Assembly (NCBI RefSeq): GCF_004010195.1
Contig: NC_057718.1
Location: 45,300,717 to 45,364,716, forward strand
DNA: 64,000 nucleotides
From: Chiloscyllium plagiosum
Taxonomy: Eukaryota
Reading direction: 5' to 3'
The position numbers were made by a program, and so were the translations under genes. The notes under the pieces are model-generated. The model saw only the letters and a program-made list of their open reading frames with translations. It made no database searches and was not told the origin of the DNA. Every line of letters starts with the position of its first letter. The stretch's first letter is position 1. Of this stretch, positions 8,436-64,000 are shown piece after piece.

Positions 8436-8596
8436 GAAGAGAAAATGAGGTCTGCAGATGCTGGAGATCAGAGATGCTCTTAGCCTGCTGGACAAACTTT
8501 CCTCATTCCTGAAGAAGGGCTAATGCCCGAAACGTCGATTCTCCTGTTCCCTAGATGCTGCCTGACCTGCTGCGCTTCTCCAGCAACACATTTCCA
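8436..8596. mobile_element. PLE terminal-repeat mini-insertion (family A) with 16-bp TSD
   Basis: TCTATAATCCATATTA at 8420-8435 and 8597-8612; body matches the PLE end at 51985-52104. Confidence 0.88.
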
Positions 8597-13198: not shown

Positions 13199-13978
13199 TT
13201 GAGGGTGCATTTTTGGAAAGCAAATCTTCGCAGGACTTATACACTTAATGGTAAGGTCCTAGGGAGTGTTGCTGAACAAAGAGATCTTGGAGTACAAGTT
13301 CATAGCTCCTTGAAAGTGGAGTCGCAGGTAGATCGGATAGTGAAGAAGGCGTTTTGTATGCTTTCCTTTATTGGTCAGAGTATTGAGTACAGGAGTTGGG
13401 AGGTCATGTTGTGGCTGTACAGGGCATTGGTTAGGCCACTGGAATATTGCGTGCAATTCTGGTCACCTTCCTATCGGAAAGATGTTGTGAAACCTGAAAG
13501 GGTTCAGAAAAGATTTACAAGGATGTTGCCAGGGTTGAAGGATTTGAGCTAAAGGGAGAGATTGAATAGGCTAGGGCTGTTTTCCCTGGAGCGTCGAAGG
13601 CTGAGGGGTGACCTTATAGAAGTTTATAGAATCATGAGGGGCATGGATAGGATAAATAGACAAAGTCTTTTCCCTGGGGTGCGGGGAGTCCAGAATTAGA
13701 GGGCATAGGTTTAGGGTGAGAGGGGGAAGATATCAAAGAGACCTAAGGGCAACCTTTTCACACAGAGGGTGGTACGTGTATGGAATGAGCTGCCAGAGGA
13801 AGTGGTGGAGGCTAGTACAATTGCAACATTTAAAAGGCACCTGGATGGGTATATGAATAGGAAGGGACTGGAGGGATATGGGCCAGGTGCTGACAAGTGG
13901 GACTAGATTGGGTTGGGATATCTGGACGAGTTGGACCGAAGTTTCTGTTTCCATGCTGTACATCTCTATGACTCTATG
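13199..13978 (+). mobile_element. Young 5'-truncated CR1 LINE (ORF2 C-terminus and 3' UTR)
   Basis: RDLGVQVHSSLKVESQVDRIVKKA...LVRPLEYCVQFWSPSYRKDV...RFTRMLPGL; premature TAA at 13550; tail CTCTATGACTCTATGA. Confidence 0.95.
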
Positions 13979-37217: not shown

Positions 37218-38005
37218 AAGTCATAGAGATGTACAGCATGGAAACAGACCCTTCGGTCCAACCCGTCCATGCCGACCAGATATCCCAACCCAATCTAGTC
37301 CCACCTGCCAGCATCTGGCCCATATCCCTCCAAACCCTTCCTATTCATATACCCATCCAAATGCCTCTTAAATGCTGCAATTGTATCAGCCTCCACCACG
37401 TACCACCCTCTGCGTGAAAAAGTTTCCCCTTAGGTCACTTTTTTTTTATCTTTCCCCTCTCACCCTAAACCTATGCCCTCTAGTTCTGGACTCCCCTACC
37501 CCAGGGAAAAGACTCCGTCTATTTATCCTATCCAAGTCCCTCATAATTTTGTAAACCTCTATAAGGTCACTCCTCCGCTTCCGACGCTCCAGGGAAAACA
37601 GCCCCAGCCTGTTCAGCCTCTCCCTATAGCTCAAATCCTCCAACCCTGGCAACATCCTTGTAAATCTTTTCTGAATCCTTTCAAGTTTCACAACATCTTT
37701 CCAATAGGAAGAAGACCAGAATTGCACGCAATATTTCAACAGCGGTCTAACCAATGTCCTGTACAGCTGCAACATGACCTCCCAACTCCTGTACTCAGTA
37801 TTCTGACCAATAAAGGAAAGCAAACCAAACGCTGCATTCACTATCCTATCTACCTGTGACTCTACTTTCAAGGAGCTATGACCCTGCACTCTAAGGTCTC
37901 TTTGTTCAGCAACACTCCCTAGGGCCTTCCTGACCTGCTGCGCTTTTCCAGCAACACATTTCCATTATGTGTATAAGCCCTGCTAAGATTTGCTTTCCCA
38001 AAATG
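37218..38005 (-). mobile_element. Young 5'-truncated CR1 LINE
   Basis: 147-aa ORF 37446-37889 is closely similar to the 13199 copy. Confidence 0.95.
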
Positions 38006-43109: not shown

Positions 43110-44085
43110 TCACAGAATCACAAAGTGTTTTACTTTCGAAGGAGGTTATTCAGCTTCTGTTTCTGCACTCTCCAGAGGAACACCATCACTTACTAACTTT
43201 TTTTGTTTTTTTCATACTCTTACACAGTGATTATTTAATGTGACCTAACCAAAGTGCTGTACAGTTCTCACATAACCTCCCTGTTTTTGTAAATTGTACA
43301 GCATGGACAAGGCCCCGCAAGGTTCTTCCGTTTCTCTGAGCTTTCCAGTGCCCTGCCATCCATTTGACTATTCCCTGTTCCTTCTTCCAAAATGCATCAC
43401 CTTATGCTTCAATGCTATGTGTCAGTTATCTGTTCATCTGACTTCAGATCAATCTGCCCCCATGCTTGTGTAACCTAAGGCCACTTGCTCACTTTCAACC
43501 ACCCAGCTAACTGTTGTGTCATCTACAAACTTGACACCTCTCTTTGCTTAATCCCCAACCCCATTAGTTTCTTCTATTTCATTTACACATATCACAATTA
43601 GAAATACTGTACACTGGACTCCTATCACACAAATAGCCTTCTATTAGCACACTCCATGTTCTACCACAAAAAGCCAATTTGGATCCAACTTGCTAAGTAC
43701 ACCAGATGTTATATGTTTTTACTTTCTTTTTCAGTCTCCTCTGTGGGGCCTTGTCAAAGGCTAATCTGAAATCCACATAAAATACTTCAACTTCATTTCT
43801 CTTATCTGCACACCTGCTCACCTCCCATTCAATTAAACATGTTCGGTGTGATCTCCCCCTGACAAAGCCATGCTTAGTTATCCCTGATCAAACCTTGCCT
43901 CTCCAAGTGGACATTAATTCTTTCCTTCAGTTTCCTTCACTAGTTTACCTACCAATGATGTGAGACACACGAGTCTGTAATTCCTGGTTAATCTCTACCG
44001 CCTGTTTTGAAAAGTGGAACCATCTTAGCTAACCACTAGTGCAATGGCACCTCCTCTGTGGTAAGAGAGTAATTAAAAATTATTA
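43110..44085 (-). mobile_element. Degraded CR1 RT region
   Basis: GCCTTGTCAAAGGCTAATCTGAAATCCACATA reads antisense YVDFRLAFDKA; TCATCTACAAA reads antisense FVDD. Confidence 0.75.
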
Positions 44086-44595
44086 AACATGAGGCCTTCA
44101 TAACAGTTGGTGTGCCTATCAGGAAGCTGATTTAAATGGTTTAAAACTAGCTATGAAAATCATGAGGTGAATCTATGGATTCAACCCTTGGTTGATATGA
44201 ACATTAAACAGAGGACCCTGTGGTGGATATTTGATGCAATGGTTAAAAGCAGAGTGATGAGTGGGCATAATGCAGAGGTGGATTGTGGTAGCAATAGGTT
44301 GAGGATAGTGGTGTGGTTGTCTCCACCAGTGGTGATCATGTTTTTAGTTACCGAGAGTTTAAACTTGGAACTTTCTGACTCTCTATCTTTGTTATCTACT
44401 TTCTTTAAAACCTACCCCTTTAATTAAGCTTTTTGACTGTGTGAAATTTTGATTTATAAAGCATCTGAGAGGTGCCTAACAATTAAAGGTGCTTTATTTT
44501 TACAAGTGTCCATGTTGAAGACAGATGAAAGGTCAGGAAGAGTCAGTGAGCCATGCCTCTTGGGCATGTGCTGTGACTGACGATTGCAGTTTTAA

Positions 44596-44812
44596 GGCAA
44601 AAGTGAGGACTGCAGATACTGGAGATCAGAGTCGAGATTAGAGTGGTGCTGGAAAAGCTCAGCAGGTCAGGCGGCATCTGAGAAGCAGGAAAATCGACGT
44701 TTTGGACAGCAACGTTTTCTGATGAAGGGCTTTTACCTGAAACGTTGATTTTCTTGCTCCTCAGATGTTGTCTGACCTGCTGTGCTTTTCTAGCACCACT
44801 CTAATCTTGACT
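44596..44812. mobile_element. Palindromic PLE terminal-repeat insertion (family A) with 14-bp TSD
   Basis: GATTGCAGTTTTAA at 44582-44595 and 44813-44826. Confidence 0.88.
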
Positions 44813-45177
44813 GATTGCAGTTTTAATGTGTGAGGTAGGCTGAAAAATTGATGAAATGTTGATGATAGATGCAAGTATTTTTCCAAATTAAAATACAAAT
44901 TTTCAATACTAAATCAGCTGTGTTTACAGATTGTGAGTAGGGTTTTTCCCATGCCTCACTGCTTATGTCAGTGTACACTTTTTGATTTGTGCTGTCTCTT
45001 CAACAAATAAGATTTTCTGATTGTGACATGGTCGCATTTTCTAATTTTAATAATCCTTTTGAATAGTTTTTAAAACATGTTTTATTTAAAGTTTTTCCCT
45101 CCGATCAGGAGAGTTTACTTTCAATAACCAGCAATTGAAACTATTTGTGCATTTATAACCATTAAAGTACATGGTCA

Positions 45178-45378
45178 AAGAGTGTAGTGCTAGAAAAGGC
45201 TCCGATGAGCAGGAGAATTGACGTTTCAAGCATAAGCTCTTTATCAGCATTCCTGATGATGGGCTTATGCTTGAAGCGTTGATTCTCCTGCTCATCAGAT
45301 GCTGCCTGATCGGCTGTGCTTTTCCAGCACCACACTCTCGACTCTGATCTCCAGCATCTGCAGTCCTCACTTCCTCCT
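45178..45378. mobile_element. Palindromic PLE terminal-repeat insertion (family A)
   Basis: Inverted arms around ~45250 with a full right terminus (...CTGCAGTCCTCACTTCCTCCT). Confidence 0.82.
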
Positions 45379-47204
45379 TAAAACTCATGGTGTCAGCATC
45401 CTGGTAATGGATCTGCTAATGTCTTCTCCGTAAAAACTGTTGACAAACATCATGTTGTGATATTTTACAAATGGTGGTGGCTTGAGAATGATTGATTGAT
45501 TATGATTTCCTTTTTTTCAACCTACCGTTGACCTTTCTTTAGACATCATGCTATTGGGTGCTCATAGACATTAAATCTCTCCCGAAAAGAGATTTTATGT
45601 AGTTGGCCTATTTAGATTGAATGTATCAAATGGAATGTTCCTAACAATAGCATCAGAATTTGAATTTGCAGTTATGCAAGATATATTAATATAGTAAAGC
45701 TGATTTTTGTCATTGCATATCTTGAACATAGTTATTATTGTAGTTTGTGGAAACATGATCTACCGAAATAAGCACATTTTTAGATACTTTACTCAAGAAC
45801 AAAATTTTGTTTGAAAGTTAATTTCTTGTGGTTATAAACACATAGACAATATAAATGGTGACTATATGTTCCTATAACTCAAATTTGCCAGAGGTAAGCT
45901 GATACTGCTAATTATTCATCACAGTTACACTTGGCCATAAACTGTCCATAGGCTTAATTTTTAACTAGAATTCTTTGATTATAAAGCTGTTTTAACACAG
46001 TACCCTCTACAGGAGATTTGATGTCAGTGCAAACAATCTACTGAACCAATCAGATTAATGAATCCTTGCAGAGGCAGACCCTCAAAACTGGGAAATGTAA
46101 ACTAAAATAGTTAACTCATTGCCAGGTTATGTGCAGAAAGTCAAAGGAAGAGATCGAAAAGAATGATGGGAGAGAAATAAAATATGCAAAGACTTGAAGC
46201 TTATTTCAACTCATTTATACAATTTTCTATCAATAATTAAAATGTGAAGGAATGAGACTCCGATAATTTTCCATCCAGAGAGTTTGCTTGTCAGAAATTC
46301 AGACTCCATTGTACTGCTAATATTTATTCATTCCAATGAATAACTCCCAACTTTTTCTGGTGAGTTCAGTTGTAAAGTTTTGCAACTTCACACTGTTTCA
46401 GTGCCAAGTCTCTCTGCGAGTTAAAAGTGTAAAAACGTGTGTGGAGAAGCAGGCTAACTCAAGACAGTGACTTCCTGATATCTGCATTTAATAATGCTTA
46501 GATAAATGAAGGAAGTTCCTGTCCAATTTATACTTTAATGAGTGCTAATAGTCTCACTGATATGTTTACCATGAAACCTGGACCATTGCTGTTTCCTTTC
46601 AAATTTTTATTTCAGTGAATGGAATCTACTTTTTTTTTTCTTATAGCTGATACAGATAAAGTAAACTTATATATAATCTTTTGTCTGACGACATCCTTCG
46701 GGAAAATGTTTTTGCTTTGGCTTTTTTTTAGAAGAGGTCATTAATATTTTTATCAACTGCAGTCACAGCACGCCCAGTGGATTCCTCAATATGTCCAGCG
46801 TTAACCGATTTATTGAGTAAGTAAACACAGTGTGGGGCTTGTTCATTATTGGAAATGCCCAAATTTAATCTTTTGTTGTGCTGAGTAACCTGACAACTGC
46901 CTGGTTGGAGTACATTTTGATCCAGTGTCATCTGTCAAGGAAAGAAATAATGCTTTGAGGTTGCCACTCTGGATCACTAGTGAATGGCATGTGCTGGGAA
47001 GTGCAGGCATAGTTATCAGGGTTGATTATGCTGTGATGCCCTTGGAGACAGACAGGTTCCAGCTACTCAACTAGCTATTAGGTGTAGTAGTGGGTAGGTG
47101 GTGGTCTGAAGGGTGGGCTCTCTGGGATCTTTTGAATTCTGTCCAGATGGGAGGAAGCAACTGGAGTTTTTCAAGAATAGGACGTGGATCTCCTGCTCAA
47201 TGCA

Positions 47205-47545
47205 AAGAATGAACTTGCATCAGTTTTTGTGATTTATTATGACCTCAAGACATCACAGGGCATTCCGTGTATATAAAATTACTCTATAACGTATTAGTCT
47301 GTATAGGCAAATGCAACAGTCAGTTTGCATGCACCACAAACAGTAAAGGAATGAGTGATGATTGAATTAAGACCAAGAAAGTAAATTGAGTTTGCTAGCC
47401 AGGACACAGGGAAGTATTCCAACTCTTTTGTTTAGATTGTGTTATTGGGTGTTTTTACATCTGACTGATCAGGCAGGAAGGATTTTGGTTTAATATGTGT
47501 TCTGAAAGATAAGAATCCAGACATTGCAGCATTTCTGCATTAATA
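47205..47545 (-). mobile_element. Degraded Deu-type SINE
   Basis: Antisense tail AAGAATGAACTTGCAT, GCCAGGACAC and body motifs shared with 17255-17490. Confidence 0.6.
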
Positions 47546-49629
47546 GACTGATGTGTTCATTCGACCGTTTGTTTAAATTCATGAATCCTTGATCATTTGA
47601 GTCATGGAGAAAATACCACTCTAGCACAGTTTCTAGAGAAGCAGGGCAGCTTAACAGCAGCTTCCTCAGTTCTGTGCTTAACTGTGATTTCTGTGGTTTC
47701 TGGAATTTGCTGTTCAACCTCACCTTAAGCTAGCATGGACACATTGAAATCAGTATTTTTGTGAAAAAAGCACTTCTTTCAACTATGTACTTTCTTCCCA
47801 TGCCAACCTATCCCCACTATCCATTCCACACCTGTCTAGCTGGAGGTCAATGATCAACACTTGGGAGTAGCATGGGACATAGTGCAGTAACTGAGGGGAA
47901 GTAGCCTTGAGGCCAGAAGTCAGTAACCTGAGCCCAATGAGCAGCCAGTGCCCAAGTCCACAGAGTAGTAAGGGTCAGTACCAAAGCACAGGAAATAACA
48001 AGCAATGAAAACCAGTAATTAGGACTAGAGAGTGACAAACGGTGATGACCAATACATGAGCTGAGGTTGCAATGAGAGACAAGTGCCAATATCTGCGCTA
48101 AGAGAACAACGAGAGGGCCAGTAACTTTGACTAGAGTGTGTCAAGAGCTAGAGCCCAACCAGTTCTGTGCTACGGTGTCAAACTATCTAAAAACCTATGC
48201 AGTGCAGAGTGCCAAGTATAATTCCTGTCCCGTTGTGGTATTTATAAATGTGGTTTTTTTCTCTTTTTCTCCAGCACTACAGTTGTGCAGTACACTCCCC
48301 AGTCTCTCAACCCTTGCCAATACAAGCACTTGGAAAGCCCATAGGATTTCAGCCACGGTTGTTGCTATGATCATTCTGTGGTTAACGAACAGCAGCCAGG
48401 ATTCAAATAGGTTTAGTGTCTGAATACTTTACTTTTCTCTCATACGGCAATGCCAGAATGCATTGTCATTGCACAGTACTCGATGCAGCAATGGAGCAGA
48501 ATACTAAAAGAAAATCAAACTGGCCGATACCCTTTCAGGATGGAATTTCCTGTGGGGAAGTATTCGGGAAACCACACCTGGAATTATTTATTTTGTCAAC
48601 TCAATTTGGCTGCCAATTCTATTAGACACACCTGAAAGGAATATTCAGCGTAAACAATTATGTGAGCCTTCACCAAATAAAAAATACTTCAGGCAATTGA
48701 TGGGAGTCAGATGATAATCATGAAACCATCTTGTTGTTCATAACTTTACAGTTTGAACTATATAATGAAATTAACGTTTAGACATTACAACCATGTATTT
48801 TAGTCAATTTAACAATGCAGACTTTGAATTTACTTGACTAACTTTAGTTAGATTCACTCAGCTTTTGCAATGGTTGATAGTGGTGACCAGGCACTCCATA
48901 CAGTCAACACACCATGGTATCCTTATAAGAGATTAGGATTAGAAGATATTCAGCTATAAACTCTCAGTAATTCACTCAGTGATTGCCAAGAGATACCATT
49001 TGTATCATGTAATTTCATCTATGTCAAGTACTATTTTCAGCCTGTAAACATTCTCGAGTTGCTCTACGCATTCCCAAAGGAGCTGCTGAAAGTTTTCTTC
49101 ACCAATTGCTTATTTGTTGAAAAAACACTCATTCTTGCCTTGAGGCAGTTAAATGTTTAACTGAGTAAGCTATCCAGTGTCAGAGTAATGGTCTTTTTTG
49201 CAATGATTAAATTGTAGTAATCATTCTGTTTAGCTGTTATTTCCCTTTTCTAATTCCATCTTGTGGCATTTGAGGTATTTGCTCCAGGCCTGTTTTCTTC
49301 AGGCAGGGGAGAAAGTGATCAGATTAGACCTCATTGTGATTGTGCATACAGCTCTGTTATGGATATTATTAACTGGGTGAATCTATTGTAGAAATTGATA
49401 AATCCTCCTCTAAGAAGTGACAAAGTGCACAGAATTCTCTTTACTGTGAAATTGTTGGCTTGGTCACTTGAAGAATCATAAGTTAAGGCGCCTGGGCTAT
49501 GAGGTTACTTAACCTTGCTTCAACAATTAAGTTATTAGTGATTTTTTTTCTGTTAGTTAACATGTGTATCAAGGAGAAAGTGAGGACTGCAGATGCTGGA
49601 GATCAGAGCTGAAAATGTGTTGCTGGAAA

Positions 49630-49751
49630 NNNNNNNNNNNNNNNNNNNNNNNNNNNNNNNNNNNNNNNNNNNNNNNNNNNNNNNNNNNNNNNNNNNNNNN
49701 NNNNNNNNNNNNNNNNNNNNNNNNNNNNNNNNNNNNNNNNNNNNNNNNNNN
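49630..49751. other. Assembly gap (N run)
   Basis: 122 Ns within the PLE. Confidence 1.
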
Positions 49752-51342
49752 CTTGTGGTTGGAGTGTTCCTAGGCGGAAGATGAGGCGCTCTTCCTCCAG
49801 CTGTTGTGTTGCTATGGTCTGGCGATGGAGGAGTCCAAGGACCTGCATGTCCTTGGTGGAGTGGGAGGGGGAGTTGAAGTGTTGAGCCACGGGGTGGTTG
49901 GGTTGGTTGGTCCGGGTGTCCCAGAGGTGTTCTCTGAAACATTCGCAAGTAGGCCGCCTGTCTCCCCAATATAGAGGAGGCCACATCAGACAAGGGAGGC
50001 GCGGTAGTAGTTTGGCGCACCGACCTTTACACCGCTGAGGCTAAACGCCAGCTCGCGGACACCTCCTCCTACTGGAGGGAAGTAAGGGGGGAGGTGTGGG
50101 TGCAAGTTTTGCATTTCTTGCGGTTGCAGGGGAAGGTGCCAGGAGTGGAGGTTGGGTTGGTGAGAGGTGTCGACCTGACAAGGAAGTCACGGAAGGAGGA
50201 AAATAAGGGGGGAGGTGTGGGCGCAAGTTTTGCATTTCTTGAGGTTGCAGGGGAAGGTTTCAGAAAAAATCTCTGGGACACCCGGACCAACCAATCCAAC
50301 CACCCCGTGGCTCAACACTTCAACTCCCCCTCCCACTCCACCAAGGACATGCAGGTCCTTGGACTCCTCCTACTGCCCCCTTGACCATGACCCCACCTCC
50401 CACCACCAAACCATCATCTCCCAGACCATCCATAACCTCATCACCTCAGGGGATCTCCCATCCACTGCCTCCAACCTCATAGTCCCACAACCCCGCACCG
50501 CCCATATCTACCTCCTGCCCAAAATCCACAAACCTGACTGCCCCGCCCGACCCATTGTCTCAGCCTGCTCCTGCCCCACCTAACACATCTCTGCATACCT
50601 CAACACAGTCCTGTCCCCCTTATTCCAAGAGCACCCCACCTACGCTTGGGACACCACCCACGCTCTCCGCCTCCTTCATGATTTTCGCTTCCCCGGGCCC
50701 CAATGCCTTATCTTTACCATGGACATCCAGTCCCTGTACACCTCCATCCCACATCACGAAGGACTCAAAGCCCTCCGCTTCTTCCTTTCCCGCCGTACCA
50801 ACCAGTATCCTTCCACTGACGCCCTCCTTTGACTGACTGAACTGGTCCTCACTCTGAACAACTTCTCTTTCCAATCCTCCCACTTCCTCCAAACGAAAGG
50901 ACCCGCATGGGCCCCAGGTATGCCTGCCTCTTCGTCGGATATGTGGAACAGTCCATCTTCCGCAGCTACACTGGCACCACCCCCCACCTTTTCCTCCGCT
51001 ACATCAATGACTGTATCGGCGCTGCCTCGTGCTCCCTCAAGGAGGTTGAACAGTTCATCCACTTTACCAACACCTTCCACCCCGACCTCAAATTTACCTG
51101 GACCGTGTCAGACTCCTCCCTCCCCTTCCTAGACGTCTCCATTTCTATCTCGGGCGACTGAATCAACACGGACATTTACTATGAACCAACCAACTCCCAC
51201 AGCTACCTAGACTACACCTCCTCCCACCCTGCCCCCTGTAAAAACCCCATCCCATATTCCCAATTCCTTCGTCTCCGCCGCATCTGCTCCCAGGAGGACC
51301 AGTTCCAATACCGAACAACCCAGATGGCCACCTTCTTCAAAG

Positions 51343-51929
51343 NNNNNNNNNNNNNNNNNNNNNNNNNNNNNNNNNNNNNNNNNNNNNNNNNNNNNNNNNN
51401 NNNNNNNNNNNNNNNNNNNNNNNNNNNNNNNNNNNNNNNNNNNNNNNNNNNNNNNNNNNNNNNNNNNNNNNNNNNNNNNNNNNNNNNNNNNNNNNNNNNN
51501 NNNNNNNNNNNNNNNNNNNNNNNNNNNNNNNNNNNNNNNNNNNNNNNNNNNNNNNNNNNNNNNNNNNNNNNNNNNNNNNNNNNNNNNNNNNNNNNNNNNN
51601 NNNNNNNNNNNNNNNNNNNNNNNNNNNNNNNNNNNNNNNNNNNNNNNNNNNNNNNNNNNNNNNNNNNNNNNNNNNNNNNNNNNNNNNNNNNNNNNNNNNN
51701 NNNNNNNNNNNNNNNNNNNNNNNNNNNNNNNNNNNNNNNNNNNNNNNNNNNNNNNNNNNNNNNNNNNNNNNNNNNNNNNNNNNNNNNNNNNNNNNNNNNN
51801 NNNNNNNNNNNNNNNNNNNNNNNNNNNNNNNNNNNNNNNNNNNNNNNNNNNNNNNNNNNNNNNNNNNNNNNNNNNNNNNNNNNNNNNNNNNNNNNNNNNN
51901 NNNNNNNNNNNNNNNNNNNNNNNNNNNNN
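51343..51929. other. Assembly gap (N run)
   Basis: 587 Ns within the PLE. Confidence 1.
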
Positions 51930-52017
51930 TAACCTCCTTCCACCTATCGCATTTCCAACGCCCCTCCCCCAAGTCCCTACCTTTTATCTTAGCCTGCTTG
52001 GCACACTCTCCTCATTC

Positions 52018-52045
52018 CTGAAGAAGGGCTCATGCCCGAAACGTC
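52018..52045 (+). ncRNA. Minimal hammerhead ribozyme motif (family A PLE)
   Basis: CUGAAGA-A-GGGC-UCAU-GCCC-GAAA-CG-UC; same core at 8509-8536 (+), 36651-36678 (+) and 36470-36497 (-). Confidence 0.6.
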
Positions 52046-55000
52046 GATTCTCCTGCTCCTTGGATGCTGCCTGACCTGCTGTGCTTTTCCAGCAACACAT
52101 TTTCAACATGTGTTTCAAGCCAATGTGTGACAGCAACTCCAGTACAGAGGTTTCTCTGTTTGAAGTGTGTTCTGATAGCACATTTTTGTTTTAGAATGAT
52201 TTTTAAATTTCCATGATTACTGTGCATAGTTAACCTGTTTTCATTTAAACACTCGTTGCTACTTCACATTGCTTCTATCAACCCCCTCCTCTCCCTCTCT
52301 TAATCCCTTTCGTCTCTTTTCCCCTCTCCCAACTCCCTCTCACTTGCTTTTTTATCTGCATTGCTACTTCTCACTTGCCTCTTCTCTTCACCCCCCCCCA
52401 CCCCCACGCCATAAAGCCTAATTTCTTGCTGCTTGTTTCTCCCTACTCCTGACTTCCCCCTTCCTACTCGCTGTTGAGGATAGAGGCATTTGTCTTAGCA
52501 TCATGTTTTCCTGTGTGTTAGCAATAAGTGCAGTTTGCATGACATGTAAGGCATAATTAGTAAGGACTATTAGTAGCTCTATAGAAAATAGCTGCTTCCT
52601 GTGAAGGTTGGTGTAAAATTCCCTAACTCCAAAAGACTCTGACGTCCACAGATTGTGTGTGGAGCAAATGCAAGTTCAACATTCACTCTTTTAAAACCAT
52701 TATTTTAAAAGGCAACAAGTAGAAAAAGGCTTATTTAGATGAATGAGAAGCTTTTTTTGGTGGAGTCAGAGTCAGACAGCCAATCGGTTTTTAATGTAAA
52801 AACTATAGGTCAGCATGGTAACCCATCCTCCTTGTATGTGTTTTATTGGGGGAGGTGCTATGATTTTTCTACAGCGCATTTCCATTCAGCATGGTGCTAT
52901 TTAGGAATACATTAGCTCTCCTGAACAAGGGACAATTAACACCAAAGGAGGACAGGATTGTGTTTAAAGTGTTTGCTGAAAGAGTGAGAAAAAAATTGTT
53001 AACCAAAAATCTTGGTATCCAGCAAAGAATGGTAGTTATAACAAAAACTATTTGTGCCCTAAAAAACATGAGCATTCTCAAGATTTTCATTCTGAACTTG
53101 GCATAATTTGTGAAGAGAAACTTTTTTTCCATCTTCAAGAAATGAATAACATTTGTAATTTCTCTGGCAAAGACATTGGCTACAATAACCTCATCATTCT
53201 GACCAAAGAGGATAGTGTCGATACAATGAATAATTCTTGGTGCAAAGGTGAAATTCCGAAGGAGAGGGAAGTCAAGAATAATCATTGAGAACAATTGTAT
53301 AAGTGATTTTGGCAAGTAGCCATATTCAAAACTTTGATCTCTGCTTATTTAGGGGTTCCACAAATTTGCTGTTGTGTTTTATCAAAAACAGCATTCAATC
53401 CCTTGAGGGAAGAATTACCACAGGGATCCTGTAATTTTAAGGTGGACATTGATAACATGAAAAAAATGTCTTATTCATTGTAATTTGTAACAACTTTTAA
53501 TAAAGCTCTACTTTTCCTTTTCAAAATAAAATCAATACACTTACCAACGCCTGGCCCAGCCTCATTGTTTTCATGTGTCAAAAAATAAAATTTCTGCATT
53601 TTCAACCTTATGGTCTTCAAATGATTACAGTTAAATTAAGCTGACTATTGTTCCCTTCCTTTCCCTTGATTAAGAGCTCATTATGTGAGAACAAAAAGCA
53701 GATTATTTGATATAATTCATTTAAGAAGAGAGAAGCTTTATTCTACACATTAAAGTTAGGTTTGTGGCACCAAATGTTTCACCAAAAGGTGGGTGCATAA
53801 GTCAATACCCTGCTATTTTCAAGGGGTTGACATCTACATTTTCCCATCATCTTATTACCTAACTGTTTATGGTGGTACATCAGCTGGCTGTGAAGATGGC
53901 AGTTTGGGGATTTAGTTTTCGCTAACACTGTCCCCAAAACTAGCTTTGCATCATGGTCAGTTTGACAAGATTTGTTAGTAAACTTTGTCTTTTTGACCAT
54001 GGGTCAGTTATCAACAATTTGGACAAGGGAGAGGAATCTCACCACAGTCTGCTTCATTGTGCTGGATTAGTTGATAATGCATTCTTCCATATTTCAATAT
54101 TTGATAGAATAATTTTCTTGTCTTTAGTTTAAAAAAGTCAACTTCAAGAAATTAATCAGCAGGCAGTTTATAAACTGTTGGTCTGCCAAAGCTTCAACTA
54201 TCTTGACTCTATGAAAATTAATTTCACTCTGAATGCAGTTGTCTAATAGTGATCCATAGCATAACTGAGAGGTAAATGTTAGCTTACAGTATATTATGAA
54301 TACATCCTTCTCTCACCTGTGCTTATGATAATGGCTCGCACTGTAACAATACTATTTGTGTAATTTCATTAATTAATCCTTCTTATTACACGGTAGCAAA
54401 TCTTGGATTCCTTGTACTGCAGTTGGTTCATCAATGGTCTAAAAAACTTGAACACCATCTAGGAATGCATTTGCCACCATATTATTGCAATGTGGATGCC
54501 CAATTTATATGCAAATTCGAATCATCACTGTAGTAGCTTTATTACCTGCAAATCTAATTTTGCATTTTCTGCCATTCTCCACACTAGCAAGAGACAAATA
54601 CTCATTAATATTTTCGGCACCTTATAATTTCTTGCATTCACTCACTGATTCTATATCTGGGCTTTCCAAACCAATACCCTTTCTCATTATTGCACTGATG
54701 TCATCTTTACTAACAATGATATGCCTCCTTCCTAAACATTCAGTACCCTTAAATCCAGTCCTATTGGTCACCATACGGTACTGAGTAACCCAATGATCAA
54801 TACGTCCAGTTCTTGCTTTTAAATTTATTTGCTAGTTCCTGTATTGTGTACACAGGATTTCATCCCTCTTTTTACTCATGTTACTGTGTCTGACATGGAT
54901 CATGACCTCTAACTATTTGCTCTTCTCCTTCATAATGTCCTGCAACTGCTTAGTGATGTGCTTGAGCCTGGAACATGGAAAGCAACATATCAAGCTGGCC

Positions 55001-56737
55001 TTAAGCAGCTGCAGAAACAGCTAGCTTTTCTCCTTACAGGAGAATATACTACTGTTTTTCCACATGCTTCCCCCCCACCACCCTGCCAACCATTTTCTTC
55101 AGTTTGTAAAGCCTGTCTGCATAAGTGAACTATTGCAATGTAGGGCATGAGATATGAACTTTGTATTCACATGCAGTTTCATACATTTATTTAGCAAACA
55201 ATTCAGTGTTAATCATAAAGGCATTAGAAATGATATATCACAAACAGCTGTGTGCACTGCTACCTTTGCAGCATCTGCTTGACAAGGTCCATGGATATGA
55301 CTGAAGTAAGATATAAGCCAGGTACCAGGATGATTACATCTGACATGCTATGAAGATTATGCAACCCTCTCAAAGCCCAAGATATTTCTCTTGATAGACA
55401 TGCCGTGGTCTTTGTATTTGCTGTTGGCCCTCACCCCTGAATCTGTATTATCTTTTACATTACCCTTACTCCAAAAACCATATTGTTTAAGCATTTTCTG
55501 CTGGGATGAGTTAATAACTTATTTGCAATGTTTTTAGGAAGATATTTTTCAGTTGTATAAAAAATAAGGCATCATTGTTATTAAAGGGAAAAATACAGTA
55601 GTTTTCTGTTTATTTCTGTTGATACAATTTTTTTTAAACTAAATTATCTTTTACATTGAGAGCAGATCTCTGCATGTCCCTATTTCATTTAGTGTCAAAG
55701 TAGTGATCAGGAGCTGGACGTTTATTATAGAAGTGGGTAGTAGGAGTTCAGAAATTTCCCGGCTTGATGCTCCCATCTTGGGAGCAGGACTTTTCTTCCA
55801 GGAATTCAAGTGATAATCAGAGTTGGGCCCAATCCCCTAGAAAGTGTTCATATACTTGGTATTCTAAGATTTTGTCCCAGTTGGAATATGGTAATTAAAC
55901 ACACAACAGCATCTAGCTCTTACACCTTCCCCACAGAGTCCCTTTACCAACTCATGAAACCCACTGTGTTTAATGAGGTTTAGTTGAGAGGCCAGACCTC
56001 CATTAGTCTGTTAAAATCAGTTCTATTTAAATTCTGCACCCATAGGAAAATGCTGTTCATTGACAATTCCTGTTAATTGCACATTATTTATTTTCAAAAG
56101 GTAGACACCTATTGAGTATCACTAGATTTGCTATTGAGACTTCACTAAAGGTCCAGATGATTGACATGTTTTTAGGGATCTAGGAGAAGCAGTTTTTTCC
56201 GGAAGGAAATAAAACAAAGTAATGACTGATTTGAAATTTTCCCATACATGTAGTTGATTTGATAAGACTAATTGTTTCTGTAAACTGCTTAATGGACATG
56301 GAAGTGCATTGACATGGAGGATGTGGGTGGACAATAACTGATGGGTGGAGGTACAAAGATGTCATGTGTAAGACCTTTAAAGAACATCCCTTTCCAATGG
56401 TTCCCTCAGCCATGACATCAGAGGTCCACTGAACCACAATTCTTTGAGAAGCTGGCCCTGTTGTACATTCATTATGAAGAGTTTGCCTTTAAGGACATTG
56501 GGCATACCATGTTGAACATCTTCCTGGCAATTAGTCTGACTTGCGTTTACAAGTTGCTCATACATTATCAGTTGCTTTGCTGGAATAGTTGCTTCAGAGC
56601 TTGCAATGTGTTTTATTGTTTCAAATGAATTAGACCATAGATATAACCCCTAATGAGTGGTTGAGTTATTAGACCATTTTTATTAACACATACAATGAAC
56701 AGTGGTGGGAACCTTCATGCTGGTGAGGCCTATTATA

Positions 56738-57091
56738 GTTAGAATTCCTACATTGTGGAAACAGACCCTTTGGCCCAACAAGTCCACAACAACCCTCCAA
56801 AGAGTAACCCACCCAGACCCATTCCCTTACATTTATCCCTGACTAATGCACCCAGCCTACACATCCCTGAACACTATGGGCAATTTAGCACAGGCACTCT
56901 AAATCTAAATTTAATTCACCTATCGTGCACATCTTTGAATTGTGGGAGGAAACCGGAGCACCCGGAGGAAGCCCATGCAGACACTGGGAGAATGTGCAAG
57001 CTCCACACGTACAGTCACCCGAAGGTGGGATTGAACCTGGGCCCCGGTGCTGTGAGGTAGCAGTGCTAACCACTGAGCCATCGTGCCACCC
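56738..57091 (-). mobile_element. HE1/V-type SINE
   Basis: Full-length reverse-complement copy. Confidence 0.9.
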
Positions 57092-58142
57092 TCCATGGTC
57101 GAGTTATTAGAATGAAGAGTCATTATTGTGAATGAAAAGTCAGAATAAGTAATTTGCAAGTGAAATACTTGATTGACAGTCTTAAACTGTGCTAAACTAT
57201 ATGGAACAATACTGGATATCTTTGTTCCTTGTAGAGAGTATTGAAAACGCAGCTCACTGGTAAGCTGACAGTTCCCTATTGAGAGACCAGATGAATTCAC
57301 TTGAAAAAGGCAACTGATGAGGTTTTGTGCTAGATTGGTAGTAGTCAAGGAAAGATCAAAAACGTATTGTCAAAATGTCCATAACATTCCCTTGTTTAAA
57401 TTGGGACACAGAATACTTCCCAACAGAATGTGGTATGGTTAAACAGCCTTAAAAACTATGTTTTTTTTTTAGATTCAGGTCTGTCCAATACAGAAAAGCA
57501 AGCCATTAAGATTTTCTTAGCAGTTGGGAACAAAGGTCTATACAGACTCATGCCAACATTAACAGTCAAAAAGAGCTGAAATGCCTCTAAAATTAGAAGA
57601 TTAATCCAGAGTCAGATTAAACTTTTATTTTCATTAACCAGAATTCATGTAATTTTGATAGAAGCCTACAGAATATGTATATCACTTCATTAGCTGATGC
57701 ACAGAAAGAGGCTGATTGTTATTTTTCAGTTGGGAAACAAGCAAACAGAATTATTGGGTTGATAATTGTATGTACATTCATGGAAGCTTTACGGTAAAAT
57801 TTTCTAAACAAACCAAGGACTTCTAGCAGTGAAGAGCTAGTGAATGAATGTAAGTATAAAGTAATCTTTGCAGATTGACTAAGCTTGGAGATCCTGATTC
57901 AAAAGTTGACGCAATCACTAGAACTCCCAAATCTAGCAAGACAAGTGGAAGTTGCAGCCTTTTGCACGCATAGGAAATGCCAACTTTCAAACAATTTTGT
58001 ATGGCTTTGGCAGAGGCGATGCACTAAGAGCAAAGATTGATAATGCTACAAATACTTGTATGTTGACCGAAACAAATGGTGTGCAATCAGTATCTTCAAT
58101 CTACAGTAAAGATATCCCACTCAGGAGGAATACATAAATGCC

Positions 58143-58348
58143 CTCCTGATGAAGGGCTTTTGCCAAAAACATCGATTTACCTGCTCCTTGGATGCTGCCT
58201 GACCTGCTGTGCTTTTCCAGCACCACTCTAATCTCCAGCATCTGCAGTACCCACTTTCACTTAGTTGATTTTAACTTTACTGCAAAACCTCTTCCAAGGA
58301 TGCCTACCTTGAAGAAGTTCTCCTCCTCTTTCTACAATGATCTCATTG

Positions 58349-58393
<45 letters not shown>

Positions 58394-58398
58394 CTCTC

Positions 58399-58430
<32 letters not shown>

Positions 58431-58580
58431 ACACTGCAACCCCCAGGACATCTTCTCTGCTCTAAGCTGACCAACCACATCCTGAAGCACACTAGCTACA
58501 ACAGCCACACCTCCCTCCTCAGTGCCTGCCTACAGAATGGACTGATCCCACATGGGGTCTGGACTACATTCAGACAGTGC
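58143..58580 (+). mobile_element. PLE pseudo-LTR followed by the start of a PLE ORF
   Basis: Family A repeat, then MPTLKKFSSS...SHTSLLSACLQNGLIPHG (resembles the PLE N-terminal H..FL..C....LIP.G pattern). Confidence 0.7.
58350..58430. repeat. Compound (TC)n(TG)n(TCTG)n microsatellite
   Basis: Directly visible. Confidence 0.95.
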
Positions 58581-58599
58581 ATTCCAGGCAACTACCCCA

Positions 58600-59660
58600 A
58601 CCCTCTCAGTGCGGGGGGATAAAACGTTCCTTGCACATCTATTTTAACATTTTTTTTCTCCTCTCGTTTTAGACCTGTGCCCCCTAGTATTTGACATTTC
58701 TACCCTGGCAAAAAAACACAAACTATCCACCCTGTCTATGCCTCTCATAATTTTATATAACTATATCAGGCTCTGATGCTCTAGCAGAAACAATCCAAGT
58801 TTGTCCAAGCTCTCCTTATAGCAAATGAACTTTAATCCAGGCAACATCCTCATAAGCATTTTTTTGCACCCTCTCCAATGCCTCCATATCTTTCATATAG
58901 TGCGGTAACCAGAACTGTGTACATACTCAAATTGTGGTCTAAGTAAAATTTTATAAAGCTGCAACATGACTTGGCAACTTCTATACTCAGTACTGCGCAT
59001 GATGAAGACAAGCATGCTTTGTTTTCTTTACCACCTTATCTGCTTGAGTTGTCACGTTCAGGGTGCTATGAACTTGCCCCATAAAAATCCCTCTAAATAT
59101 CAATATTCCAGAGGGTACTGTCATTTACTGTATATATTTCACTTGTATTTGACCTTCCAAAATGCATCACTTTATACTTATCCAGATAAACTCCATCTGC
59201 CATTTCTTCACCCAACTTTCCAACTGATCTATATCTTGCTGTAATCATCTTCACTATCCACAACTCCTCCAACTTTCGTCGATTCTGCAAACTTATTAAT
59301 CAGACTATCTACATTTTCATTCAAATCATTTATATATATTCTAAGCAACAGAGGTTCCATCTCTGATCTTTGCATAACACCACTGATCTCAGATCTCTAA
59401 TCAGAAAATGTCCTTCTGCAACTAACCGCTGTCTCCAATGACCAAGCCAATTTTGTATCCAACTTATCAACTCACTGTGGATCCTATGGTGACTTAATTT
59501 TCTGAACCAGCCTACCATGAGGGACCTTGTTATATGTTTTGTAAAGTCCATGTAGACACTTCCCTCACTAATCATCTTCGCCACATCCTCAAAAACCGCT
59601 CAAATTTATGAGATAAGACCTCCCCCACAACAATCCCTAATAATTTTTTTTTCCCAAATG
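58600..59660 (-). mobile_element. Degraded CR1 RT C-terminal region
   Basis: Antisense VYMDFTK, ISWIQNWLGHWRQR, DKYKVMHFGRSN. Confidence 0.85.
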
Positions 59661-59674
59661 TGACTAAATTTATG

Positions 59675-59940
59675 AAATAGGAGCAGAAATAGATAATTTG
59701 GCCCCTAGTCTGCTCTGCCATTTGGAAAGATCATACTGATCTATTTGTGTTTCAAATTCCACATCCTCATCTACCTTTGATTACCCTTGATTTTCCATGC
59801 TTGTAAAATTCAATCAAATCACCTGCACTCTTGTAAACTCCAGTAGAGATGAGCCATCCATGTGTAATCTATCCTAATAAAACAATCTGTTCATTCCATA
59901 TCTCAATCCAGTAAGTCTCCTCTGAACCACCTCCAATGTA
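59675..59940 (-). mobile_element. Older CR1 3' end
   Basis: GAAATAGGAGCAGAAATAG tail-like start, as in old CR1 copies. Confidence 0.55.
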
Positions 59941-60575
59941 CGTCTTATGATTCATCTCCATTCAGCTCCTAAATCTGAATGAAGAATTGAAAGAGCAAGA
60001 AAGGAAACAGGTTAGGCACCAAACTCTGTATCACTAATCCAATGAAAGGAATGTGAGATTATAGGATGGTCTGGAGCAACTTGCATGTGAAAAATCCAGC
60101 ACAGCAAAAGCAACTACAGTTCATGCTCAAAGGAATACTCAAGAAAATGTGAGACATGCAAAAACATGCATTAGCACAACACAAAAAATGTCAGTGCTTT
60201 CAGAAAAAAATGCTAATAATGTTACTCTAGTAAAAAAAACTGTAACAGAACTTGGAAGAAACCAAACAAGCAGGGGAACAGCGAGTGGAAGAGGTTTGGT
60301 CTTCAAGGAATTCAAAAAAAAAGTTGGAGAGACTGACAGTTATTAAGGCTGGTTCTGAAAGAGCAAATATACTAGTCCACCAGAGAGCTAAAGTTTGATA
60401 GAATTTGAAGAAACCAGGCTACAAAACCAGAAACTTCAAAATGAACTGGAAGCTTTCAAGGGACAAGACAGTAAATGCCATTAACGTTTGCTTCCATTTG
60501 TAAAAGAAGAACAGTCTGTGACTAATCTGAAACCAAAACTGGCTGTGGTGCATCAGGAGAAACAAATTCTGGAAA

Positions 60576-61286
60576 TCGCACAGCACCAGGTTATAGTCCA
60601 ACAGGTTTACTTGGAAGCACTAGTTTTTGGAGCGCCGCTCCTTCTTCAGGTTATTGTAGAGTAGGACCATAAGACATAGAATTTATAGCAAAAGCTTGCA
60701 GTGTCATGCAAGTAAAATGATATATTTAACAAACCTCGATTGTTGTTAAGTCTTTCATCTTTTGGAATGGATTACAGGTTTAGGTTCAATAATGTGTAAG
60801 TCCCAGAACTTCTTTTAAGTCACATTCTCAAGATAAGGTTTTATATTTTTAAAAAGTGACGTCTTAGCTCAGACAATGCCGTAACGGTGTGAGTCTGTCT
60901 GTATCCCAATCTTGACTCAGACTGGTTCTATTTCCAAAGTGGAAATCACAAAATATTATATGGATTAACTGTTTGCACTGACTACCTACCAATTGTGTAT
61001 TTTTTGAGCAAAGTAGAATGTATCTGTAAATATAATTCAGCAAATACAGATTCTAAAAAATGAAAGGCTTAACAACAATCGAGGTTTGTTAAATATATCA
61101 TTTTACTTGCATGACACTGTAATCTTTTGCCATAAATTCTGTGTCTTATGGTCCTACTCCACAACCACCTGATGAAGGAGCAGCAGTCTGAAAGCTAGTG
61201 CTTTCAAATAAACCTGTTGGACTATAACCTGGTGTTGTGTGATTTTTAACTTTGTCTACCCCAGTCCAACACTGGCTCCTCCATAT
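60576..61286. mobile_element. Palindromic PLE terminal-repeat insertion (family C) with 13-bp TSD
   Basis: Inverted arms of about 190 bp; CAAATTCTGGAAA at 60563-60575 and 61287-61299. Confidence 0.88.
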
Positions 61287-62740
61287 CAAATTCTGGAAAG
61301 CAATTGCAATCCATTGGTTGGGGGGTGGAACTTGACAACAAAGTGATCATCACGAGAGCTGCTCACGAGCAAATCACGCACATTTTGTAAAGACTCATAG
61401 GTTCTCTTATAAAAAGTTAGACATTTCCTTTTGGAAAGGAAGGGATGCTGTGTGTGTACCGTTCTTTTTCCTTTAAAAAGAGCTTATCTTGAAGGACTTC
61501 ATGTTTATGTGTATGCAATGTTGAGATTGTTGCTGACAGTCTAACTTTGAGTTTGCAGCTGCTAAAAAGAAATCAGTTGATTTACCTCAATGTCTGGTTC
61601 ATAACTTGTATTGTGCTTTGCTGTTTTCACAAAACTAGCCCAGGGAATTAATTGATCCTTGATAAGTGATTATTACATTACTATCATTAACATGACAGCC
61701 CCCTGCAATTTTCATGAATTTGGCACTAGCGGATGGCTTTTCTCTGCAGTGGAGCTACTCAGATCAGGAATGCAGGATGCAAACACATAACCCAACAAAG
61801 GAACTTAGTTCAAAAGTGAATCAGGTGGGGCTTCTAGCAAAATTTTAATATGAGAAAGATGTCAATTCATAAGATGTCAATCTACATATAAAACCGTTGT
61901 GTAACAACTAGATTTTGAAATTGTTGGGACATTATGTCAGCAGTGTAGAGGATGTCACACAGACAGAATCACTATAGTACCAGCCCTCACCTTCATCCCA
62001 CCTTGAATCCCAGATTCTACTCTGGGACTCCATTTATGGATCTGTGGAGTCTCACTAATTCTGCAAAAGTGTAGCCTGATATCTTTCATGGGAAACAAAG
62101 TTTTAATTTTTTTTTAAAATGGGTATTAAAGGCATTGACAACTGTTTCAGCATTGTTTTAATTTCTCGTCTTTCCCTTTCACCTTTTTTCTTCTACCTTT
62201 CAGTGAATTAATCCAGGTAACCTAAAAATGTGTGATTGCTGATCTACTTTTCAGCACCTAAATCAGGGAGCAGCTTTTTCCTTCAAATCTCACCTTCCTC
62301 CAGAGGTTTACTTGAAGGGTTAATTTTAAACTCAGACCCATTAGGTTAAATGTCATTGAAGCAAATAGGGAGGAGCATTGGGTCATTAACACAACAAAGC
62401 CAGTACCACAATGTCAATGGCACTGGATCAATCTTCATACATTTCCTCGGGGTCCTCCTTCCTTCCCCTGCCCTTCAAGCTATGTATAATCAATTGTGTA
62501 TGTCCCTCTCTCTAATGGAGAGGAATGCCTATGGTTATTTGTGGACTGTGGCTAATAATTTACCTAATCCTGTGTTTCAAAATGTTTAAAATGTTTTTAT
62601 TGTCCCATTGCACTCCACACAAGTCACACATGCAACTAACTCAGCTTCTCTTGAGATGTAAACAATTTGTCTGAAAAATTACTATTTGTTCATTATTTGG
62701 AGGTGCCAGTGTTGGACTGGGGTTGGCAAAGTTAAAAATC

Positions 62741-62860
62741 CAGGGCTTATGCCCGAAACGTCGATTCTCCTGTTCCCTGGATGCTGCCCGACCTGCTGCG
62801 CTTTTCCCGCAACACATTTTCAGCTCTGATCTCCAGCATCTGCAGACCTCACTTTCTCCT
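62741..62860 (+). mobile_element. Family A PLE end nested in the family C element, 14-bp TSD
   Basis: CAAAGTTAAAAATC at 62727-62740 and 62861-62874. Confidence 0.9.
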
Positions 62861-62913
62861 CAAAGTTAAAAATCACACAACACCGGGTTATAGTCCAATA
62901 GGTTTATTTGTGG

Positions 62914-62948
62914 CACTAGCTTTCGAAGCATTGCTCCTTCCTCAGGTG
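62914..62948 (-). ncRNA. Minimal type-I hammerhead ribozyme motif (family C PLE)
   Basis: Minus strand: CAC-CUGAGGA-A-GGAGC-AAU-GCUUC-GAAA-GC-UA-GUG. Confidence 0.7.
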
Positions 62949-64000
62949 GTTGTGAAGCAGGACCATAAGACATAGAATTTATAGTAAAAGATTACAGTGT
63001 CATGCAACTGAAATGATATGTTGAGCAAAACTAAATTCAGTCTTTCATCTTTTAGAATGGATTTGTTAGTTTTGGTTTTTTAATATTTAAATCCCAGAAC
63101 TTCTTTTACGTCGCATTCTCAAGATAGCTTTAAGTTTTATTACAAAAGATGTCATATCTCAGCTCAGACAATGCATTAAATGTGTGAGGTTAAAGTCTGC
63201 CTGTCTCCCAATCTTGATTCAGACTGGTTCTAAAGTGGAATTTTCACAATATTACATGGATTGACTGCCTGTAGGTTATGTATTTTTTGAGCAAAATAGG
63301 ATGTATATGCAAATATAATTCTGCAAATATAAATTCACCCCATAAACGTGTGTGTGTGTGCACAGGAGAGAGAGAGAGACAGAGTGAATGTGTGTGTGTG
63401 AATGTGAGTACATGTGAGAGAGTGTGTACTTGCGAGTGTGCAAGCTTGGCAAAGTATATGTATGCATGTGTTGAGGTATAAGCTTGTGAGAGGGTACGTG
63501 CATGGGTGAATGTGTGGGGACAATGGGCATCAACACAAAGTGGCCGAGCAGAGACTGATAGCCAAGTTTGGTACCCATGAGGATGGCCTCAAGCGGGTTC
63601 ATGTCACACTACAGGTGACCCCACTGCACTATTTCCCCTCTCCCTCTCTTCTCACTCTCTCTCCTCACTCTCTCACTTTCTCTCACACACACACTTACTT
63701 TCTCACACACTTGTGCAGATCCTCTCTCATATGTACACATGTACACCCCCATACTCACATCCACACAGGCACCTCTCTCAGGCTTATACCCCATCACATC
63801 CACACACATCCTTTACCAAGCTTGTACACATGAAGCATACTCTCACATGCACTCATGCGCACGCACACGTTTATGGGGTGAATTTATATTTGCAGAATTA
63901 TATTTGCGTATACATCCTATTTTGCTCAAAAAAATACATAACCTACAGGCAGTGAATCCATGTAATATTGTGTAAATTCCATTTTAGAACCAGTCTGAGT

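Follow-up and report, generated by a model that had tools for sequence, protein, structure and literature searches.

Minimal hammerhead ribozymes were described by Cervera and De la Peña (2014, PMC4209133) in the pLTRs of metazoan PLEs. As reported there, they have a type-I topology with the core CUGANGA, an extra base, a stem II closed by a G-C pair, GAAA, a two-base palindrome and a UH cleavage site. Helix I is short, the copies are mostly dispersed and single, several families occur per genome, and opposite-strand pairs lie 100-700 bp apart. Cartilaginous fish are missing from Table S1 of that paper and from the 56 motifs shown in its Fig. S3, and the word 'shark' is absent from its main text. 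Published dimers mostly show weak cleavage or none: those of a Schistosoma motif cut weakly, and its monomers did not cut at all (PMC4209133). One of nine Xenopus retrozyme dimers is reported to cut, and retrozymes with a type-I motif are known from one cartilaginous fish (bioRxiv 10.64898/2026.07.22.740005); the supplements of that preprint may list the family described below.

Three further systems are close. In the anole Poseidon element PAc (Frangieh et al. 2024, PMC11167929), the hammerhead precedes the two start sites of reverse transcription by which the tail is defined, and two genomic 3' ends are the signature tied to these two internal starts. Its genomic copies are described as coming from uncut RNA, and no RNA-seq ends are reported at the cut. 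The ORF of PAc starts inside the hammerhead, and PAc is the one element for which cleavage assisted by protein is shown. The EN+ PLE units (Craig et al. 2021, PMC8557442) have inverted arms, a tail of 30-40 bp and heavy 5' truncation. Finally, in the Clec2 3' UTR hammerhead (PMC6765202, PMC6155905) a poly(A) signal follows the cut site and would be removed by cutting.

Here, we analysed a window of 64,000 nucleotides of Chiloscyllium plagiosum, in which a sequence-only reading had pointed to an intact minimal hammerhead in the ends of a PLE family, called family C. The motif at 62.9 kb is, very probably, a sequence-intact minimal hammerhead motif in the pLTR of a very abundant PLE family. Selection likely kept the motif in the active parent elements, in which it would cut RNA weakly, as a dimer or aided by the protein of the element; the truncated fold-back copy here is likely inert.

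The 62.9 kb motif and its insertion

The features of the motif, its insertion and its sister copies are as follows.
62914-62948, minus strand: minimal type-I hammerhead motif, sequence-intact, with the predicted cut after A17 at 62917
62696-63514, minus strand: left arm of a family C PLE insertion with a fold-back structure; it holds the 3' UTR/pLTR, the hammerhead and the tail, contains a nested insertion and has approximate ends
63515-64000, plus strand: right arm of the same insertion, which runs off the window
62741-62860, plus strand: short family D PLE insertion nested in the family C tail and flanked by a target-site duplication of 14 bp (62727 and 62861)
63528-63618, plus strand: frameshifted C-terminal remnant of a PLE endonuclease-domain ORF, near the centre of the fold-back insertion
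61166-61200, plus strand: sister motif with an intact core, N7=U and a broken stem II
60618-60652, minus strand: sister motif with N7=A, an A in place of G12 and a broken palindrome, on the same strand as the 62.9 kb motif and 2.3 kb downstream
60576-61286, no strand assigned: single head-to-head family C insertion containing both sister motifs, with a 13-bp target-site duplication at 60563 and 61287

From 62948 to 62914 the minus strand reads CAC, CUGAGGA, A, GGAGC-AAU-GCUUC, GAAA, GC, UA and GUG, with C3 of the core at 62945. When the letters were read again, the placement and every part named earlier (stem I CAC/GUG, CUGAGGA, the extra A, stem II, AGCU and UA) agreed. The core CUGANGA, GAAA and the UH site are present in type-I order, and stem II consists of four Watson-Crick pairs and one G.U pair. 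Four traits reported in PMC4209133 for which we had not selected are all present: the unpaired extra base after A9, between 9 and 10.1, the G10.1-C11.1 pair, which forms with a probability of 0.23 in a 55-nt context, the palindromic 15.2-16.2 (AGCU), which replaces helix III, and families that covary. The general layout, short helix I, dispersed single copies, several families and opposite-strand pairs described there also recur here; the stem sequences are specific to each family.

A descriptor search and a covariance search had been proposed as checks, and their outcomes differed. The strict type-I descriptor matched twice in the window (62945 minus and 61169 plus); across 60 dinucleotide shuffles of the window the average was 0.05 matches, and no shuffle had more than one. 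When the palindrome was required, none of the 60 shuffles was matched, and the bare hammerhead pattern was found 16 times against 7.2 +/- 2.9 expected. With Rfam, no match reached the gathering score anywhere in the window, and no hammerhead was among the three matches at E <= 10 in 59500-64000. The 35-mer folded no better than its shuffles (z -0.20). The motif therefore lacks the stable helix III and the match to a curated Rfam model of canonical type-I hammerheads. Both the Rfam miss and the unremarkable fold would be expected when helix III is absent, and neither lends support.

The sequence-only reading had named two sister copies with N7=U and N7=A. Both letters are as stated, but both copies are damaged, and they are the two arms of one insertion. 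The copy at 61169 (plus) has a G.G and a C.A mismatch in stem II, and in the copy at 60649 (minus) the third stem I pair is broken as well. Since the arms are 89% complementary across 196 nt, motif included, a transcript spanning both would likely bury the motif in a long hairpin. In the best fold of the 61.1 kb arm, GAAAGC pairs with the bases right after stem I (61190-61205) and the cut site is looped; this competing hairpin is absent from the 62.9 kb copy.

The 62.9 kb motif lies in a PLE pLTR, as seen from the ORF end, the inverted arms, the tail and the duplications. The fold-back arms are 96% alike between 63219-63356 and 63860-63998 and 75% alike between 63405-63514 and 63756-63855. The ORF remnant is identical in 10 of 20 residues to the C-terminus of the endonuclease domain of L002, a marine relative (pairwise E 1e-5), and it resembles the ends of P0001 and P0002, the latter of which has an RT Pfam domain. 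The remnant is about 30 residues long, and a window-wide tblastn gave weak matches (E 0.01-0.02). Pfam returned no family for the family C ORF end and six other window fragments. Pieces of both RT and endonuclease are seen in the relatives L001 and L002, and L002 has a Cys-rich linker of the Neptune/Nematis type (PMC8557442), unlike the Poseidon element PAc. The RT of family C, which would fix its clade, is absent from the window.

The nested family D copy begins inside its own hammerhead and misses the 5' part of the core. It lies in opposite orientation to the family C tail (62727-62874 with its AT-rich 14-bp duplication) and sits near the first 3'-end site of family C.

Family C in sequence data and beside other PLE families

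Four runs were matched to the reference 61090-61295 (the 61.1 kb arm) at 80% likeness. The DNA-type runs of organisms A and B gave 103,998 and 95,163 contigs that match family C, and a possible RNA run of organism C gave 12,245. From organism A, 4,143 raw poly(A) reads of single cells matched as well (X21). The family is very abundant; these contig and read counts are not copy numbers.

The letter frequencies were taken from depth-weighted contigs and carry a reference bias, with some differences left uncounted. The majority letters give a fully paired stem II (in X1, 61185 is G in 63%, 61186 C in 94% and 61189 C in 50%), and the split of letters at 61184-85 and 61189-90 would fit CpG decay. 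It had been claimed that position 7 varies between copies. This is so among the three window copies, which have G, U and A, but it does not extend to the family: N7 (61173) is mostly U, and no alternative letter reached 8% in the DNA runs X1 and X6. None of the seven T>C and three T>A places in X1, or of the six and three in X6, is at N7, and T>G places are absent from both. Since no alternative reached this level, the window copies with G or A probably changed at N7 once they had inserted, and N7 variation was rejected as evidence of selection. At H17 (61197), A was replaced by U in 15-22% in each of the four runs, and no A>G place was found there in X6. In X1, 28 changes of at least 8% were counted over 206 bases, of which three to four have no assigned position and possibly fall on G12. 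Within family C, the core positions are not demonstrably more conserved than the flanks.

A change of C to A at 61201 (10-19%) occurs at a rate similar to that of A to U at H17, and some C to T is seen at 61165. The three changes may mark a subfamily whose stem I has a fourth pair (U-A), which L002 has too. The contig depth was higher over the tail than over the motif; we did not read this as truncation at the cut, because the reference departs from the majority at three stem II positions.

The matched sequences also placed the ends of family C.
61250-61288, plus strand: PLE tail with two genomic 3' ends, at 61250-61253 and 61283-61288

Family C thus has the 30-40 bp tail at one end, and its insertions have an inverted, 5'-truncated copy beside the main copy. 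Its hammerhead stands upstream of the tail, as in PAc. The inverted truncated arm, the 3' ends about 35 nt apart and the 13- and 14-bp duplications agree with the PLE anatomy given in PMC8557442 and PMC11167929, and from the EN+ units as described in the former we found no structural difference.

For a comparison across families, 15 motifs were anchored by hand, 13 from the window together with those of L001 and L002; B_32297, whose GAAA region is disrupted, was left out. The core is intact in 10 of the 15; at H17 every motif has A, C or U and never G. Between families C, D and B, changes on both sides of a pair were found at I.2, II.3, II.4 and in the palindrome (AGCU in family C, ACGU in family D), a comparison of three families made without a phylogenetic null.

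L001 and L002 are overlapping contigs of one marine element and were the two loci found by the pattern scan of metagenome contigs; the scans of viral contigs and genome contigs gave none. L002 has 30 of the 35 motif letters in common with each family C copy, an identity that is selected since L002 was retrieved with the motif as query. Independent of this selection are its ORF end, its AAUAAA and its unrelated flanks, which are 43-50% alike to family C against a random baseline of 45% (95th percentile 51-54%). The RT fragment of L001 scored E 1.4e-5, below the cut-off of Pfam. Together, L002 1-1470 and L001 1-1050 outline a PLE with a motif nearly identical to that of family C, a 5-bp stem I and an AAUAAA after the site.

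Family D motifs lie at 8509+, 36497-, 36651+, 42857+, 44719+, 45253+, 52018+ and 58146+, and the core is kept in five of the eight. They have a GGGC/GCCC stem II, the ACGU palindrome and a UC or UU site, and several resemble head-to-head pairs that begin at the upstream edge of the motif. Family B, with a 5-bp stem II, is found at 32297-/32305+ and 10490-; the pair at 32.3 kb is back-to-back, with the cores seven bases apart.

At the level of sequence and structure, the earlier proposal that family C carries a minimal hammerhead motif of the dimer type holds. It would extend the class described in 2014 to another lineage and would change no model.

We considered that the hammerhead shape is conserved for a main role other than self-cleavage, as a folded binding or start signal for the protein of the element or for transcription. 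Nine of the 15 joints among the matches listed are opposite-strand fold-back joints with one side at 61161-61174, which maps to the upstream edge of the motif and not to the cut site. In the anole PLE, hammerhead mutants are reported still to insert in vitro, and RNA-seq reads ending at the site are absent from the data described (PMC11167929). Naiad PLEs are described as thriving without canonical hammerheads (PMC8557442). Against such a role, the catalytic bases and H17 (A, C or U in the 15 motifs) are what stays constant while the stems covary, and the anole motif is reported to cut once protein is added, with a C3G/G8C rescue (PMC11167929). We regard a signal in place of a ribozyme as rather unlikely, though it is the strongest of the alternatives.

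The poly(A) signal after the predicted cut

Downstream of the predicted cut, two of the three family C copies in the window carry a poly(A) signal.
62903-62908, minus strand: AAUAAA, 8 nt past the predicted cut and followed by a GU/U-rich tract; use of the signal was seen for family C, not for this copy
61207-61247, plus strand: family C poly(A) module with AAUAAA at 61207-61212, poly(A) addition at 61224-61227 (family reads) and a GU-rich tract downstream

The AAUAAA lies 8 nt past the predicted cut in the 62.9 kb copy, 9 nt in the 61.1 kb arm and 18 nt in L002; in the 60.6 kb arm it is mutated. By chance, AAUAAA would occur in 1.6% of 25-nt windows. None of the ten family D and B motifs has one within about 60 bases after the site.

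The use of the signal was seen in X21, which is one sample of which about 2 in 100 of the run was read. A loose poly(A) end was found behind 61224 in 745 reads and behind 61227 in 920, together 1,665 of 4,143. These positions are +27 to +30 from the cut, 12-15 nt past AAUAAA and before the GU-rich tract, and the reference has no A-run there. On the RNA strand the depth drops from 2,793 to 594 at the poly(A) site, whereas the DNA depth does not drop there. From the poly(A) ends and this drop we conclude that, at least in this sample, real poly(A) sites are provided by copies of family C. In sense-strand order, the predicted cut (0) comes first, AAUAAA follows at +8 to +9, poly(A) is added at +27 to +30, and the genomic ends lie at +53 to +56 and about +91. 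With the cut, the signal, the poly(A) site and the two integration ends within about 90 nt, the idea that cutting and polyadenylation oppose each other becomes testable. If cutting competes with polyadenylation or undoes it, this very abundant repeat would provide host RNAs with conditional 3' ends.

By eye, AAUAAA stands just past the site in 9 of the 56 rows of Fig. S3 of PMC4209133, a count made without a null model. The main text of that paper has no mention of a poly(A) signal after the site, and the strings 'polyadenyl' and 'AATAAA' are absent from PMC2377424. A literature search, mostly of titles and abstracts and with few subscription papers, returned no report of a poly(A) signal beside PLE hammerheads.

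These observations bear on the possibility that hammerhead and poly(A) signal form one switch, in which cutting would strip the signal or the tail from element RNA, or from host RNAs with a family C copy at their end, by analogy to Clec2. The Clec2 ribozyme, whose activity is shown, is discontinuous, of type III and part of a host gene (PMC6765202, PMC6155905), whereas the candidate ribozyme of family C is a compact type-I motif in a mobile repeat. The likeness, a predicted cut upstream of a used poly(A) signal, is found at the family level only and in one RNA run. The short distance of AAUAAA in two of three window copies and in L002, its rarity by chance, the poly(A) ends with the drop in depth and the rows of Fig. 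S3 would fit such a switch. Opposed to it are the families D and B, from which the signal is absent, and the A-rich flanks in Fig. S3, which may simply pair with U-rich upstream flanks. The polyadenylated X21 reads themselves pass uncut through the motif. As 2,733 of the 4,143 fall short of 90% likeness to the reference and most may stem from a few loci, they are no test of an intact ribozyme, and the poly(A) result as a whole comes from a small part of one sample. Molecule ends showed no pile-up at the cut site, which is uninformative because the 5' product escapes an oligo-dT library and the product on the 3' side would measure, tail aside, about 30 nt.

We consider a switch of this kind improbable. 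Less probable still is its fuller form, a compact 3'-end switch in which a hammerhead activated by a dimer or by protein precedes a working poly(A) signal by 8-9 nt, and host RNA ends with an intact core could lose their tails whenever a partner copy or the protein of the element is at hand. If it were true, dispersed copies would lend poly(A) sites to host transcripts and the activity of the transposon would be coupled to host RNA decay at many loci.

Predicted activity of the parent elements and of the 62.9 kb copy

The reading we prefer remains that of a sequence-intact hammerhead motif that most likely serves the parent elements as a weak, conditional cutter. In these parents, two copies would pair through the AGCU palindrome and exchange their stem I strands, and each core would cut its partner after UA. 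Alternatively, the protein of the element would assist the folding, as reported for the anole element (PMC11167929). In a tandem parent, dimer cutting would trim the RNA of the element. Since the genomic copies reach past the poly(A) site as well as the cut, their RNA template would have been neither cut nor polyadenylated at that repeat; the anole element is described likewise (PMC11167929).

For the 62.9 kb copy, the calculated energy of the dimer was -10.5 kcal/mol; two monomers gave -12.4 and the best co-fold -21.4. The sole family C partner on the same strand in the window (60649-) carries A at G12, and its palindrome is broken. The unfavourable dimer energy, the neighbour with its broken core and the low probability of the G10.1-C11.1 pair (0.23) suggest that the 62.9 kb copy is likely inert; nearest-neighbour energies omit the tertiary contacts of the core, which makes the dimer estimate weak evidence.

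That this copy is active, or co-opted by the host, at its own locus is very improbable. It alone of the three family C motifs in the window has the core, the stems and the palindrome all intact, though it is the most diverged copy (83% alike to the 61.1 kb arm). Among many copies some will be intact by chance, and the core is kept in 8 of the 13 scored window motifs. The window holds no intact partner on the same strand, and by inspection of the ORFs of at least 75 aa in 44000-64000 no host gene was recognised around the site. Its G.U pair and N7=G also differ from the family majority. Least credible of all is a non-LTR retrozyme unit, tandem, non-coding and with a circular RNA, which has the type-I motif in common with family C and is known from a cartilaginous fish (bioRxiv 10.64898/2026.07.22.740005); we disfavour it at this locus since the copies are inverted arms with no head-to-tail tandem and the insertion carries a PLE ORF end.

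Other repeats were seen elsewhere in the window. A decayed and rearranged PLE at 49570-52110 has RT, Cys-rich linker and endonuclease pieces in both orientations and two assembly gaps, and family D ends flank both sides. Its RT pieces at 50620-51338 (E 1e-13 to 1e-22) are upstream of the family D motif at 52018, with an assembly gap between. Pfam returned no family for 13190-13549. The fragments at 13190-13552 and 37446-37964 read like the 3' end of what we take to be a LINE reverse-transcriptase ORF, and several dispersed repeats of the window are presumably SINE-like.
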